A stretch of DNA of 51,802 nucleotides from sequence record NC_031050.1, one strand, 5' to 3'. The DNA comes from Escherichia phage vB_EcoS_NBD2. Positions 9,424 through 23,217 of this stretch are shown one piece after another. The notes beneath the pieces were generated by a model. It had not been told where the DNA came from. It saw nothing but the letters and a program-made list of their open reading frames with translations, and did not search any database. The translations under genes and the position numbers were made by a program. Within the stretch, counting starts at the first letter, position 1. Each line of letters begins with the position of its first letter.

Positions 9424-9511
9424 GGAAGGATGGCAGAGAGGACGATTGCGCGCGGTTGCTAACCGTGAAGCCGGAAACGGCTCAAGGGTTCGAATCCCTT
9501 TCTTTCCACCA
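9424..9511 (+). tRNA. tRNA-Ser (anticodon GCU), class II with long variable arm, CCA encoded
   Basis: Hand-folded cloverleaf: acceptor GGAAGGA/TCTTTCC (one G-U), U8, D-stem GCAG/TTGC, anticodon stem CGCGG/CCGTG, loop TTGCTAA (U33, GCT, A37), variable arm GCCG-gaaa-CGGC, T-arm AAGGG-TTCGAAT-CCCTT, discriminator A, CCA. Confidence 0.8.
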
Positions 9512-17880: not shown

Positions 17881-18251
17881 TTGATTATAACGAAGTGCAG
17901 AGGCTCACCGATCAGGGAATCGAAGCCTTTTCCGGTGGCGGCTCATTTGAGATCATAATCACTGGCGCTGGCAAGAAGATTGTAAACGGTGAAGAGGTTG
18001 TGATCCCAGAGGTTCGCGGCACTGTTTACGGCGCTGTGCGGGCTATCAGTCAACGATACGTTGACGGTGAAACAATCTTGCAGGGCGACAAGCGCGCCTT
18101 CTTCTCGAACGTAACGCCGATTGAAAACGGGATGATCATCATCCTTGAGGGTAAGCACTGGCGGGTAATCGACAATCGACCAGTAAACCCAACGCAAGGG
18201 CACGTGATCGCATATCGCCCAATCTTGCGAAAGGTGGCATCGCATGGCTAA
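17877..18251 (+). CDS. putative head closure protein
   Basis: ATGA overlap with upstream gene; position. Confidence 0.4.
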   Translation: MIDYNEVQRLTDQGIEAFSGGGSFEIIITGAGKKIVNGEEVVIPEVRGTVYGAVRAISQRYVDGETILQGDKRAFFSNVTPIENGMIIILEGKHWRVIDNRPVNPTQGHVIAYRPILRKVASHG

Positions 18252-18687
18252 CTACCAGATCAGAGAGTTTCATGATTCGGTTGCAAAGTGGATTAAGGCA
18301 TCGCAATTGGGGCTGGAGGATGTTGTCAGGATCATGGTTGCCAACATCCACAAGGATTTAGTTTACGGCTCACCAGTTGACACGGGGCGCTTTCGTGCCA
18401 ACTGGCAGATCACCGCCAACGTGCCGCCGTTCTACGCGCTCAATCAGTACGACAAAGACGGGAAGAAAACCATTGCAGAAGGTAAGCGAATCACAAACGC
18501 CATGCTCACCAGGGGCGCTGCAATAACCACGATTTATTTTTCAAACATGCTGATCTATGCCAATGCTCTTGAGTACGGACATTCGAAGCAAGCGCCAGCA
18601 GGCGTGCTGGGAATCGTGGCAATCCGGTTGAGATCTTACGTTAATAACGCAATTAAAGAGTCGAGGCTAAAAAATGGTATTAGATGA
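18244..18687 (+). CDS. putative neck or tail completion protein
   Basis: Overlapping gene in head-tail joining block. Confidence 0.4.
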   Translation: MANYQIREFHDSVAKWIKASQLGLEDVVRIMVANIHKDLVYGSPVDTGRFRANWQITANVPPFYALNQYDKDGKKTIAEGKRITNAMLTRGAAITTIYFSNMLIYANALEYGHSKQAPAGVLGIVAIRLRSYVNNAIKESRLKNGIR

Positions 18688-19102
18688 TTATGATGTTGAG
18701 GTTTCGGCGCGTAAGGCGCTTGCCTCTTTCGTTGGAGAGCGTTACCCGATCGCCTTTCCGAACTATGATTTCACCGAGCCGGATGATGGTTCAATGTGGT
18801 TAAAGTTCGACTACGTGCCAGTTGATAAGGTCTACAGGTCACTTGATCGCAAGTGCGTAAGCCTGATATCTATGATTCAGATCGGCGTTATCTTCCAGCC
18901 TGGGAGCGGTACGGACGACGCGCGCAAGCTGGCGAAAGAGCTTGTGAATTTTTTCGAAGATGGTAAAATCCTGAATGTGGGTTTTATTTTAAGCGGGGCG
19001 GAAACAAAGCCAACGCTAAAACACAATGCGGGCTGGCTAATCCCTATCCGCTTCACTGTCAGATATGACGAACACCCAGAACGGGAAAACAAAGGAGTTT
19101 AA
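18674..19102 (+). CDS. putative tail terminator protein
   Basis: Last gene before major tail protein. Confidence 0.4.
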   Translation: MVLDDYDVEVSARKALASFVGERYPIAFPNYDFTEPDDGSMWLKFDYVPVDKVYRSLDRKCVSLISMIQIGVIFQPGSGTDDARKLAKELVNFFEDGKILNVGFILSGAETKPTLKHNAGWLIPIRFTVRYDEHPERENKGV

Positions 19103-19103
19103 T

Positions 19104-19778
19104 ATGTCTCTTCCAAATGGTTCAAAGGTATTTATCGAGCGCACCCGCGCGGCGCAGGAAATTACCGCAAGCGCGATCTCCAACGCAGAGAATCCGGTTG
19201 CAACCGTAAATTCAACAACTGGACTTGCAGTTGGTGATTTTGTGCTTGTCACGGAATCCGTATGGGCAGGCCTGAAAAACCGCGTGCTTCGTATCAAAAC
19301 CGTAACCGCAGATACAAGCATCACGCTTGAAGGCGATAAGAGCACGAGCACGGTAAACCTGAACAAATACCCAGCGGGCGGCGCGTCAACTCTGGTTAAG
19401 ATCACCTCCTGGATTGAAATTCCGTGCGTAAGTGATATCGCCAAATCCGGCGGCGAGCAGCAGTATTACACTAAACAGTGTTTATCTGATGACCGCGAAC
19501 GCCAGATCCCAACCTTCAAGTCTGCAACGTCGATCGCGTACACCTTCGATTTCGACTACGCAAACCCCGTGACTGATTTGCTGATTGGTTACGATGAAGA
19601 TGGGAAAACCCGCGCGCTTTACATGTTCGTGCCAAAGGCAAGCTTCCCGATCCGCGCCTTCTCCGGCGTGCCGTCATTCGATGACGTGCCGAACACGGTA
19701 ATGAACGAGGATGAAACAACCATCCTGACAATCTCCCTGGACGGTAAATACGTTCACATGCAGGGCGAAGTTGACTAA
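19104..19778 (+). CDS. major tail protein
   Basis: ORF 19065..19778 trimmed to ATG 19104 after RBS aaaggag; followed by strong terminator; lies upstream of chaperone pair and tape measure. Confidence 0.6.
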   Translation: MSLPNGSKVFIERTRAAQEITASAISNAENPVATVNSTTGLAVGDFVLVTESVWAGLKNRVLRIKTVTADTSITLEGDKSTSTVNLNKYPAGGASTLVKITSWIEIPCVSDIAKSGGEQQYYTKQCLSDDRERQIPTFKSATSIAYTFDFDYANPVTDLLIGYDEDGKTRALYMFVPKASFPIRAFSGVPSFDDVPNTVMNEDETTILTISLDGKYVHMQGEVD

Positions 19779-19784
19779 ACCGAA

Positions 19785-19812
19785 AGGGGGGCATTGCCTC
19801 CCTTTTTCTTTT
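19785..19812 (+). terminator. intrinsic terminator after major tail gene
   Basis: GC-rich stem GGGGGGC/GCCTCCC followed by TTTTTCTTTT. Confidence 0.6.
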
Positions 19813-19852
19813 GTGATTTAATAGCGACTCAATCAAACAAGAGGATTAAACC

Positions 19853-20167
19853 ATGTCTTTCAAAGTGAAACTTTCTGAACGCCTGCCAGATTTCCCGCTT
19901 AACGTTAAATTCCATCTACCCAACGGCGTTGAGGCTGAAATTAAATACACCGTAAAGCACCGCAAGGCGAGTGAAATTCAAGAGCTTTACGCTCGTGAGA
20001 ACATCAAGGATCACGAGTTCATCACGGAAATTGCTTCCGGCTGGGATCTTGAAGATGAGTTTACCCCAGAGAATGCGCAAAAGCTGGTTGATAAATTCCC
20101 AGCGGCGGCGCTGGCACTGACTCAAAGTTACATGGCGGCTCTTGCTGGCGTGCGCGTAAAAAACTAA
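19853..20167 (+). CDS. tail assembly chaperone (G-like)
   Basis: 104-aa ORF immediately upstream of tape measure; ends with slippery heptamer A_AAA_AAC. Confidence 0.65.
   Translation: MSFKVKLSERLPDFPLNVKFHLPNGVEAEIKYTVKHRKASEIQELYARENIKDHEFITEIASGWDLEDEFTPENAQKLVDKFPAAALALTQSYMAALAGVRVKN
20158..20164 (+). other. candidate -1 programmed ribosomal frameshift site A_AAA_AAC
   Basis: Heptamer in zero frame as gtA AAA AAC taa; after -1 slip the frame reads CTA AAG CGG GCT GTA ACG CTG ATG... without stops into the downstream ORF. Confidence 0.6.
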
Positions 20168-20184
20168 AGCGGGCTGTAACGCTG

Positions 20185-20484
20185 ATGTTCAAGCGACAAC
20201 CAACCGATCAGGAATTGGAGGATTACGGTTTAACCCGTGAGGATTACGATAATCAAGATCCTGAAATACTCCTTTTCGATGAATCAATGTATCAGTCATG
20301 GGAAACATTCTGCGCAATGCAAACCCAATGGCGATCGGCTGGCGCTGGTGCTTACGGCCTGGATTATAATGTGTTGCCTATGCTGTTTCGAATCTATAAA
20401 ATAGATGATGAAGAAATGGCCTTAAATGATATTCGCGTGATGGAAGGGGAAGCCCTAAAAGCAATGCGAAAACTTCAATCATAG
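20185..20484 (+). CDS. tail assembly chaperone T-like segment (probably expressed as a G-T frameshift fusion)
   Basis: ORF in the -1 frame relative to 19853..20167, open from the slippery site through 20484. Confidence 0.55.
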   Translation: MFKRQPTDQELEDYGLTREDYDNQDPEILLFDESMYQSWETFCAMQTQWRSAGAGAYGLDYNVLPMLFRIYKIDDEEMALNDIRVMEGEALKAMRKLQS

Positions 20485-20505
20485 CGCCTTCGGGCGCTTT
20501 TTTTA
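20483..20505 (+). terminator. intrinsic terminator before tape measure gene
   Basis: AGCGCC-ttcg-GGCGCT plus T7. Confidence 0.6.
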
Positions 20506-20517
20506 TATGGGGGTTTT

Positions 20518-23217
20518 ATGACCGACCAATACGCAGGTTTGACCCTGGGCGTTGACGTTTCCCAGGTAGACAAGGCGGTTAAATCTCTGGACGCATTCGC
20601 AGAGGCGAACGACAGAGCCGCTAAGGGCGTTGAGAGCTTCGTTGATGAGGAGCAGGTTGCTCGACAGAAGGCCAAGGAGTTCGGCAACGAATTGAAGAGG
20701 CAGGCCAAAGAGTTTAAAAACGTTGAGGCCTCGATTGATCCCACCTTTGCCAAAATGCAGAAGTTGCGCGGCGCGGCGGAGCAATTAGACCAACTCTGGA
20801 AGGCGGGAGTTGTGCCAGATGAGAAATTCTTTATTCTTGGCGAAATCATCGAAAACCAGACCGTAGCACTCAATAAATCTCGCGCAGCGCTGACGGAAGA
20901 GGGTAAGGCAGCAGCAGAGAACGCCAGGAAGAAGGCTACGGCTCAACGCGAAGCTGACAGCTTCATCAAGCAACTGACGGCGCAGGCCAACGCAGCAACG
21001 ATGACCAAAAACGAACTTCTCGAACTTCGAGCGGCGGAGTTGGGAGTTACGGCGCAGGCGGCACCATTAATCGCATCGCTCAACAAGCAAACAAGTGCGC
21101 TGAATCTTTCCGGCCTTTCGGCTGGTCAGTACTCCCAGGCGATGCGAATGCTTCCGGCGCAGATCACGGACGTTGCAACATCACTTGCAGGCGGTATGCC
21201 GATTTGGTTAGTGGCAATCCAGCAGGGCGGGCAGATTAAGGACTCATTCGGCGGCGTGGCGAACACGTTCAAAGTTTTGTTGTCTTTCCTTAATCCGGTT
21301 AACGTTGGGATTGCGGCTACGGTTGGCGCGCTGGGAACGCTGATTTATGCGGTGGTCAAGGCCAAAAGCGAGATCACAGCGGCGCAAAAGGAAGTAACTG
21401 AAACGCTGGGAATGACAGGTGATTACGCAGATAAGCTGGCGTTAAACCTCCGCAACATTTCACAGGCCGCAGGTGAGACAACCGCCGAAACAGCAAAGAC
21501 TTTCATCACCACGAAAGACAGCGCAGAGCAGGCGATTGAAAAGCTTATTGATGTTGGATTTAGTTACGACGAGGCGCGCCGGAAGGTTGAAACTTACAAA
21601 GGATCGTCTAACTTCACCAACCTTAACGCCGACATTGAAGAGCACCGCTTACAGGTGTTAGGCCTCAAAGACGCATGGAGTGACGCGGCGGAAGAGGTGA
21701 AAAACTACTACACTGGAGCGAATGAGGGCAAGCAAAGTGTTGCTTTGGGTGGTGCGATTGATCCTATTATGCGCATTATCGAAAACGCAAAGAACTTGCA
21801 GAAGGAAACGAACCAGGCTCGAATTGAAGGTAACAAGATTGTTAACGACACAATCAATTCAATTAACAAAGAGTACCTGGCATCGAACAAGATCGCGGCG
21901 GCGGAAAAGGCGATTGTAGACGCGAAGAAGCAGGCTAAAATTATTTCACAATCCGGCAATGATGTTGCCATTAAGCAGGCCAACGAGCTTGTCAAGATTC
22001 GCGAAAAAGAATTGAAGCAGGCGCAGGATGCGGAAGCAAAACGCAACAAGCCAAAGAAAACATCAACTGGCGCGATCACAAAATCGCCAACCGAACAGCT
22101 TGATCGTGAGCTTTACACTCTGAAAGCGCAACTTGTGGTTATGCAGCAACACGCGAACATCAACGACAAGATCAGCAACCAGAGAAGGGCGCTATGGGCT
22201 ACAGAGGCACAAATTACCGTGCTTAAAGATACCCAGAGCAAACGAGCGCTAACCAACGATGAAAAGGCGTTGTTAGCGAGTCAAGAGAAAGTGCTTGAAC
22301 TTGCAAAACAGAAAGCGGAGTTAGGCGATCAGATTTTGCAGCAAGAGCAGTTAAACGCGCTGAATGACCAATCGTTGAAATTCGTCATGCAAATGAACGA
22401 AAGCACGAAGGCGCTGAACGACTCGCGAGCGATGGGCAACCGTGAAGCAGAAAGGGCGGCAGAGCGTGCGAAAATCACCTCTGATTACCTTAAAAACGGC
22501 GGCGGCGCTGACGATGAGAATCTCAAGAAGATGATTCAAGCCCAGGATGAATACTACGCCGCAGAAGATGCCAAGCGTGCTGATTGGTTAGCTGGGGCGC
22601 AAAACGCCTTTGCCAACTACGGTGACGCGGCAACGGATATGTATTCAAACGTAGGCAGCATCGCAACCAATGCTCTTAACGGAATGTCAGATATGATGAC
22701 CGATTTCCTTATGACAGGGCAGGCCAACTTTGCAGACTTCGCGAAGTCAATCATTAGCCAGATCATAAAGATGATCACGCAGATGGTTATTTTCAACAGC
22801 ATTTCCGGCATGATGGGCGGCGGAGGCGGTTTCTCATTCGCTAAAGGATCATACGCAACGGGCGGCTACACTGGCGACGGCGGCAAGTATGCGCCAGCGG
22901 GCGTGGTTCACCGTGGCGAGTTCGTTATGACGAAGGAGGCAACGAAGAGAATCGGTGTTGATAATCTTTACCGAATGATGCGCGGCTATGCTTCTGGAGG
23001 TCTGGTTGGTGGTTCTGGTTCAGGCGTTTCGGGCACCAATCAGAGCAGCGGGCTTTTATTGAACATCGGCAGCATTCCGGTTAACATCAATAACGGAAGC
23101 GATCCGGCGGGAATGGAGCAAGGGATCAGGATGATTGTTACGCAGATGATGACGGAAGCTTGCGCGCAGGGTGGCGAAATCAATCGCTTTGTAAATGCTA
23201 AAATGGGGAACGGTTAA
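20518..23217 (+). CDS. tail tape measure protein
   Basis: 899 aa, largely coiled-coil-like, Gly-rich C-terminal segment; sits between chaperone pair and minor tail genes. Confidence 0.8.
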   Translation: MTDQYAGLTLGVDVSQVDKAVKSLDAFAEANDRAAKGVESFVDEEQVARQKAKEFGNELKRQAKEFKNVEASIDPTFAKMQKLRGAAEQLDQLWKAGVVPDEKFFILGEIIENQTVALNKSRAALTEEGKAAAENARKKATAQREADSFIKQLTAQANAATMTKNELLELRAAELGVTAQAAPLIASLNKQTSALNLSGLSAGQYSQAMRMLPAQITDVATSLAGGMPIWLVAIQQGGQIKDSFGGVANTFKVLLSFLNPVNVGIAATVGALGTLIYAVVKAKSEITAAQKEVTETLGMTGDYADKLALNLRNISQAAGETTAETAKTFITTKDSAEQAIEKLIDVGFSYDEARRKVETYKGSSNFTNLNADIEEHRLQVLGLKDAWSDAAEEVKNYYTGANEGKQSVALGGAIDPIMRIIENAKNLQKETNQARIEGNKIVNDTINSINKEYLASNKIAAAEKAIVDAKKQAKIISQSGNDVAIKQANELVKIREKELKQAQDAEAKRNKPKKTSTGAITKSPTEQLDRELYTLKAQLVVMQQHANINDKISNQRRALWATEAQITVLKDTQSKRALTNDEKALLASQEKVLELAKQKAELGDQILQQEQLNALNDQSLKFVMQMNESTKALNDSRAMGNREAERAAERAKITSDYLKNGGGADDENLKKMIQAQDEYYAAEDAKRADWLAGAQNAFANYGDAATDMYSNVGSIATNALNGMSDMMTDFLMTGQANFADFAKSIISQIIKMITQMVIFNSISGMMGGGGGFSFAKGSYATGGYTGDGGKYAPAGVVHRGEFVMTKEATKRIGVDNLYRMMRGYASGGLVGGSGSGVSGTNQSSGLLLNIGSIPVNINNGSDPAGMEQGIRMIVTQMMTEACAQGGEINRFVNAKMGNG

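Follow-up and report, generated by a model that had tools for sequence, protein, structure and literature searches.

The stretch of DNA analysed here (the window) is the 51,802-nt sequence of Escherichia phage vB_EcoS_NBD2 (NC_031050.1), a genome that is 97-98% identical to those of the Klebsiella phages HazelMika and KLB19 (Drexlerviridae, Vilniusvirus). This study concerns a putative programmed -1 ribosomal frameshift site in its tail gene region, where two small open reading frames (ORFs; 19853-20167 and 20185-20484) follow the major tail gene and precede the tape measure gene; all features described below are on the plus strand. The first ORF (19853-20167), with a Shine-Dalgarno-like AGAGGA that can be read directly at 19840-19845, i.e., 7 nt before its ATG, encodes the zero-frame product, a G-like tail assembly (tape measure) chaperone of 104 amino acids. 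Its last three sense codons and stop (20156-20167; ...GVRVKN*) read GTA AAA AAC TAA. The heptamer A_AAA_AAC at 20158-20164 therefore lies in the zero frame, in X_XXY_YYZ phase over Lys103 and Asn104, and is abutted by the TAA at 20165-20167, a possible stimulator of the “shifty stop” type. An earlier note on this DNA, made by a model from the letters alone, had placed this heptamer in the zero frame at the end of the ORF, and its reading is exact to the base. It had also stated that the -1 frame is open through the downstream ORF, and translation confirms this: this frame has a TAA at 20092-20094 and, from 20095 onwards, no further stop until 20482-20484. In the resulting 70-nt overlap the heptamer is the sole slip-prone motif. 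The first codon after a -1 slip is CTA (20164-20166) and, since 20164 + 21 = 20185, the ORF at 20185-20484 lies in the slipped frame. The -1 segment (20164-20484; 106 amino acids plus stop) represents the T-like part with a DUF1799 domain, and the predicted fusion reads ...GVRVKN-LKRAVTLMFKRQ... across the junction. Joining 19853-20164 to 20164-20484 gives a predicted protein of 210 amino acids and 24.3 kDa, compared with 11.9 kDa for the unshifted product.

A slippery heptamer in itself says little in this genome. Its plus strand contains 188 strings of the type XXXYYYZ and 23 runs of at least six A's, and in a rough set of ~70 putative genes covering the 51,802 nt we counted 31 zero-frame X_XXY_YYZ heptamers (with A or T as Y), including seven other copies of A_AAA_AAC, so that the heptamer was rejected as stand-alone evidence. 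What is unusual is not the heptamer but its combination with a stop and a long -1 continuation, which is unique among the 31: only the heptamer at 20158-20164 abuts its zero-frame stop, and it is followed by 106 codons in the -1 frame, whereas the next longest continuation is 38 codons and the median ~6. A zero-frame A_AAA_AAT is also present at 18669-18675, three codons before the end of the ORF at 18244-18687 and overlapping the next tail gene (18674-19102). It was rejected as a frameshift candidate because that gene is in the +1 and not the -1 frame and the -1 continuation is only two codons long.

Both halves of the pair can be assigned to families. The chaperone ORF matches Pfam Phage_TAC_4 (PF08748) over residues 1-104 (E=2e-28; 99.5 bits vs. 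a cut-off of 21.1) as well as PHROG 569 and PHROG 17368, and the downstream -1 ORF matches Pfam DUF1799 (PF08809; E=4.5e-13; 49.7 bits vs. a cut-off of 26). In PHROG 17368, which has 213 positions, the chaperone half and the DUF1799 half each match the corresponding half of the profile, and the conceptual 210-aa fusion aligns with positions 4-210 (E=8e-92; 307.7 bits). The fusion thus matches this profile end to end, which indicates that fused proteins of such architecture are already contained in PHROGs. A further example is P0058, a 206-aa entry of our protein library, in which a single ORF carries both Phage_TAC_4 (1-93) and DUF1799 (118-197); either the two halves are naturally fused in frame in this protein or an indel artefact has joined them. 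When the -1 segment was used for a profile-free search of 1.84 billion representative proteins, 442 relatives were obtained, almost all of them short stand-alone gene calls with ragged N-termini. A homologous-protein search with the fusion as query returned one 123-aa DUF1799 protein only. Relatives with a solved structure, as sought by sequence, were not found, NCBIfam contained nothing relevant, and an AlphaFold2 single-sequence model of the 104-aa chaperone (mean pLDDT 45.7) was too poor for fold comparison. To judge from the profile matches, the pair falls within the Phage_TAC_4/DUF1799 family known from T1-like phages and outside the sequence families of lambda G and T.

The arrangement was compared with that in 80 loci from IMG/VR and additional loci from GenBank, 89 of which, this genome included, were examined for frame relation. 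A tblastn search with the fusion retrieved 1102 phage records. In nearly all of these the halves are neighbours but are encoded in two different frames, and for 84 of the 89 loci the shift from the first half to the second is -1. The view that the arrangement is conserved among long-tailed phages, also put forward previously, is well in line with these numbers. In 44 loci (the A6C group) A_AAA_AAC is found at the junction and is directly followed by a stop codon (TAA in 42, TGA in 2), most of the junctions reading GTAAAAAAC and one GCAAAAAAC. The T1 junction is GCA AAA AAC TAA, the same heptamer plus stop occurs in Sauletekiovirus AAS23 and in the more distant Dhillonvirus Pride, and the T1-like phages ElisaCorrea and BrunoManser possess the identical A_AAA_AAC TAA junction. 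The slip site is also constrained at the codon level. When 42 distinct chaperone genes were aligned by codon, 19 residues with degenerate codons proved invariant; 17 of these use two to five codons, and only Lys103 (AAA, 42/42) and Asn104 (AAC, 42/42) keep a single one. The slip site is thus conserved beyond what the protein requires, which shows selection on the site.

In other relatives a different motif is found at the same place. Pseudomonas phage SYP has G_GGA_AAC plus stop (GGGAAAC), Rogunavirus C119 has GCA AAG G, i.e., A_AAG, and the 38 Webervirus loci have GCA AAA G, i.e., A_AAA_G; the latter two motifs permit a single Lys-tRNA slip only. Between homologous chaperone genes, the slip motif thus changes while its position stays the same. 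The records of four independent relatives, i.e., Citrobacter phage HCF1 (L005/L007) and loci L031, L047, and L048, carry GTAAAAACTAAA, with A5 and not A6, which sets the T part in the +1 and not the -1 frame relative to the chaperone. HCF1 has a second single-base indel ~20 nt upstream of the slip site. Homopolymer miscalls are the most likely explanation for these A5 records.

Taking the frame geometry, the family assignment, and the codon constraint together, we consider it very probable that the tail assembly chaperone pair of this T1-like phage undergoes programmed -1 ribosomal frameshifting at 20158-20164. Most ribosomes would translate 19853-20164 and stop at the TAA at 20165-20167, releasing the 104-aa, 11.9-kDa chaperone. 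A minority would slip one base back, with the tRNA-Lys and tRNA-Asn on AAA AAC re-pairing with AAA AAA, and would read CTA at 20164 and then on through 106 codons to 20484. The 210-aa, 24.3-kDa product would run ...GVRVKN-LKRAVTLMFKR..., with the DUF1799 domain as its C-terminal half, and such a tandem ribosomal slip would leave the junction peptide ...GVRVKNLKRAVTL.... If the products act like lambda gpG/gpGT, the N-terminal part common to both may coat the tape measure protein and the C-terminal part of the rare fusion may recruit the major tail protein, in which case a fixed low ratio would matter for tail assembly. The slippage itself, its efficiency, and this division of labour between the two products are what we infer from the observations above.

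Several points weigh against this interpretation. An experimental demonstration of the frameshift was found for none of the T1-like phages, this phage included. A_AAA_AAC is much less shift-prone than A_AAA_AAG in E. coli (PMC5009743) and, consequently, efficiency may be low, although a low efficiency fits a G:GT-type ratio. In a comparison of 14-sequence profiles by hhalign, homology to lambda gpG and gpT was not detected (probability 0.1% and 1.4%, respectively). With regard to structure, a weak interrupted hairpin of 2+3+4 bp with a C.A mismatch between 20174 and 20199 is present at 20172-20201, 7 nt after the heptamer, but its minimum free energy of -9.4 kcal/mol (z -0.46) is no better than that of shuffled sequences, and RNAalifold, applied to 32 junctions, gave no consensus pairs (pseudoknots were not searched). 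Finally, an ATG at 20185 lies 18 nt after the chaperone stop, so that some free T-like protein could arise by re-initiation, and ~30 among the 150 DUF1799 matches listed start at the equivalent Met.

The last two points bear on the alternative that there is no frameshift and that the DUF1799 ORF is translated alone, e.g., by termination-reinitiation, from the ATG at 20185-20187 that opens the listed ORF of 99 amino acids, giving a free 99-aa protein. HazelMika, in which the downstream ORF is listed as a separate coding sequence (CDS), has been annotated accordingly. However, this in-frame ATG is not preceded by a Shine-Dalgarno-like sequence, and, of 80 distinct relatives, only 6 have a start codon at the equivalent position; the other 74 lack it, and their first downstream start is found 50-128 nt past the stop, within the conserved domain. 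Moreover, the seven codons before the ATG (20164-20184), which encode L-K-R-A-V-T-L in the -1 frame only and precede any start codon in that frame, are conserved as protein. Among relatives this linker encodes LKRAV(T/Y)L with LKRAV conserved, and in the A6C group the variation in the five LKRAV codons (CTA/CTG, AAG/AAA, CGG/AGG, GCT/GCG/GCC, and GTA/GTT/GTC) is synonymous in the -1 frame except for one Lys-to-Asn and one Val-to-Ile change. Since the linker is conserved through changes that are synonymous in the -1 frame, and since this frame contains no ATG, GTG, or TTG from 20095 up to 20185, the linker must be translated in the -1 frame. Independent initiation also leaves the fixed synonymous sites of the heptamer unexplained, and the fused architecture is matched by PHROG 17368 and P0058. 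The ATG at 20185 therefore probably represents an internal Met rather than a conserved start, and we regard translation of the second ORF on its own as unlikely.

Somewhat less likely still is that the shift takes place during transcription, i.e., that RNA polymerase adds an A in the A6 run at 20158-20163 so that an A7 messenger RNA encodes ...VKK-LKRAV.... An A7 transcript, or a single-tRNA slip, would give the junction peptide ...GVRVKKLKRAVTL..., which differs from that of the tandem slip. Bacterial RNA polymerase is not known to slip efficiently on runs shorter than ~8-9 residues, which counts against this explanation. The junction does contain six A's, a conserved run would equally be expected, and polymerase slippage on GA6 is known in potyviruses (PMC5009743). 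On the other hand, the GCAAAGG of Rogunavirus, the GCAAAAG of Webervirus, and the GGGAAAC of SYP need the same -1 shift and lack a long homopolymer. In addition, the C after the run is fixed (AAC, 42/42), though AAT would preserve both proteins, which points to a constraint at the level of the codon.

An intron within the chaperone gene, as claimed for KLB19, is hardly credible, and so is a frame break due to a sequencing error or to the gene being a pseudogene: A-run length does differ in the four A5 records, and homopolymer miscalls thus occur at the slip site, but the same break in ~1100 independent records, with A6 plus stop identical in 44 loci, excludes a one-off error, and the conserved protein is continuous across a coding overlap of one base, which leaves no intervening sequence. 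The self-splicing intron reading of the KLB19 paper was rejected on the grounds of this 1-nt overlap and of the lack of an Rfam intron match: between 19700 and 20700 no Rfam family reaches E=0.1 (best E=0.27), and the sub-threshold matches are all on two terminator hairpins.

If the ribosome shifts frame at 20158-20164, the question arises which signals, other than the heptamer, stimulate it. The earlier note had suggested a search for a stimulatory structure directly downstream; a hairpin is indeed there, and its 7-nt spacer is within the 5-9 nt of canonical three-part -1 signals, but, as described above, it is weak. Its weakness is due to the C.A mismatch; both closest relatives, HazelMika and KLB19, have a G at the position equivalent to 20199. 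Their hairpins in the same register reach -16.1 kcal/mol (z -2.5) and -14.9 kcal/mol (z -1.55), respectively, and values were also obtained for T1 (-15.9 kcal/mol; z -4.85), BrunoManser (-19.6 kcal/mol; z -5.0), and Dhillonvirus Pride (-17.1 kcal/mol; z -1.5). For AAS23, C119, and SYP no fold better than shuffles was found in this register. When a named 8-bp stem was scored over the 32 aligned junctions, 85.5% of the cells were paired, as opposed to 33-57% in slid controls. Covariation support is thin, however, as the stem shows a single compensatory pair, which is restricted to the Vilniusvirus clade. In our reading, the hairpin is a recurrent but dispensable helper, and what stays constant in the signal is the slip motif, joined in most clades by the stop next to it. 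In vB_EcoS_NBD2 the hairpin probably contributes little.

Other candidate stimulators were considered as well. A Shine-Dalgarno-like element upstream of the slip site, as in dnaX, is not conserved: the candidate AGGG in the codon for Gly99 is freely variable in the alignment of 42 genes. An effect of a phage tRNA on the decoding of Lys or Asn codons was rejected, since the genome encodes tRNA-Ser (anticodon GCU) only. This single tRNA-Ser (GCU) gene lies at 9424-9511, and the same has been reported for KLB19. The stop directly after the heptamer probably helps by slowing decoding in the A site. A stop codon 3' of a slippery run is an established type of stimulator, reportedly described as “shifty stops” by Weiss and colleagues in 1987 (listed in PMC5009743), and the TAA at 20165-20167 would play this role here. 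We tentatively propose, as a possibility that we consider clearly less than even, that the recoding signal in this lineage is a two-part module of heptamer and adjacent stop, in which slow decoding of TAA by release factor, and not RNA structure, sets the G:GT ratio. If so, the hairpin of T1 and some of its relatives would be an optional add-on that is free to decay, as it has here. Replacement of one such module by another would be possible and would account for the turnover of motifs among related phages, and the frameshift ratio would respond to the release-factor activity of the host.

The best known system for comparison is G/GT of phage lambda. As in lambda, the major tail gene is separated from the tape measure gene by a pair of small ORFs, whose second member, in the -1 frame, overlaps the first at its end and has no conserved start. 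A zero-frame slippery heptamer is situated near the end of the first ORF, and a short product plus a rarer fused product are expected. In lambda, however, the heptamer is G_GGA_AAG and lies five codons before the stop, whereas here A_AAA_AAC abuts it. In lambda, where the molar ratio of G to GT is ~30:1, binding to the tape measure protein is a function of the G part and recruitment of the major tail protein one of the T part, and neither product occurs in the virion (PMC5009743). The locus of vB_EcoS_NBD2 displays every feature by which the G/GT-type class of frameshifts is recognized at the sequence level. The idea of a G-T-like fusion directly upstream of the tape measure gene, formulated before this analysis, thus holds with respect to position, architecture, and Pfam family, but does not extend to detectable homology with the lambda proteins. 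The tail chaperone frameshift is widely conserved despite low sequence similarity, and some of the sites in tailed phages seem to need no stimulator (PMC5009743).

Closer counterparts are found among the T1-like phages. A frameshift has been reported for Citrobacter phage Stevie (PMC4319613), K. aerogenes phage Solomon (PMC8407766), and E. coli phage U136B (PMC8104045) and hypothesised for Rogue1 (PMC3496638), and the record of Klebsiella phage Sweeny (MK931443) contains a joined CDS annotated as “tail assembly chaperone frameshift product.” Sweeny, Stevie, Solomon, and U136B share with the phage studied here the combination of Phage_TAC_4 and DUF1799, its position, and the -1 relation, where Stevie counts as a T1-like phage with a frameshift on the basis of the literature. 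The Webervirus phages, including Sweeny, differ in that GCA AAA GTT TAA, a motif for a single Lys-tRNA slip, takes the place of the tandem heptamer.

Comparable sites are also known from bacterial genes. IS1 uses A6C. Tandem Lys-type slippage of enterobacterial ribosomes on an A run is what the insAB' genes of IS1, other bacterial A6-type sites, and dnaX would have in common with the phage junction, and IS1 is among the families of insertion sequences that use frameshifting (PMC5009743). In E. coli dnaX (A_AAA_AAG), however, the slip site is flanked by strong elements on both sides, a Shine-Dalgarno-like one upstream and a hairpin downstream, and frameshifting reaches ~50%. Unlike dnaX, the phage site combines a weak hairpin with the lack of a conserved upstream element and, therefore, low efficiency is to be expected.

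The genes and signals that flank the pair were also identified. The major tail protein gene (19065-19778) is the upstream neighbour in the ORF list and is so annotated at the same position in HazelMika and KLB19; the tape measure protein gene (20518-23217; 899 amino acids), from the ORF list and the annotation of the same two phages, is the downstream neighbour. Our scan detected a terminator-like GC hairpin with a T-run at 19782-19806, in the gap between the major tail and chaperone genes, where a rho-independent terminator has been annotated equivalently in T1, and another, followed by T7, at 20483-20498, between the T stop and the tape measure gene, where terminators have been annotated at the equivalent place in T1 and Sweeny. 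These bracketing terminators may grade the expression of the major tail, chaperone, and tape measure genes. The genome of ~51.8 kb appears to be whole and circularly permuted, position 1 of HazelMika and KLB19 corresponding to 9939 and 10008, respectively.

Existing annotation of the junction is heterogeneous. HazelMika has two separate CDS without a frameshift, the KLB19 record (PP526029; locus L002, 4074-4705) has only a misc_feature over both ORFs, and the KLB19 paper calls the junction an intron (PMC11845039). The frameshift is unannotated in the records of the T1 reference, BrunoManser, tonijn, RAD2, C119, ElisaCorrea, HazelMika, and KLB19.

This type of signal, and its presence in T1-like phages, was already known, and no new principle emerges from this study. 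For the phage itself, our results call for a single chaperone gene entry that covers both ORFs and gives the -1 frameshift product as a joined CDS, which corrects the annotation as two separate ORFs or, for KLB19, as an “intron” that is unsupported by the sequence. Synonymous recoding of GTA AAA AAC, or a miscall in the A6 run, is expected to abolish or distort the long chaperone and, hence, tail assembly. For the T1-like phages as a group, the comparative set forms a compact natural series, in which several genera share the identical heptamer plus stop, sister clades use other motifs, and the hairpin is present or decayed depending on the lineage. This series bears on what sets the efficiency of low-level frameshifting by enterobacterial ribosomes.

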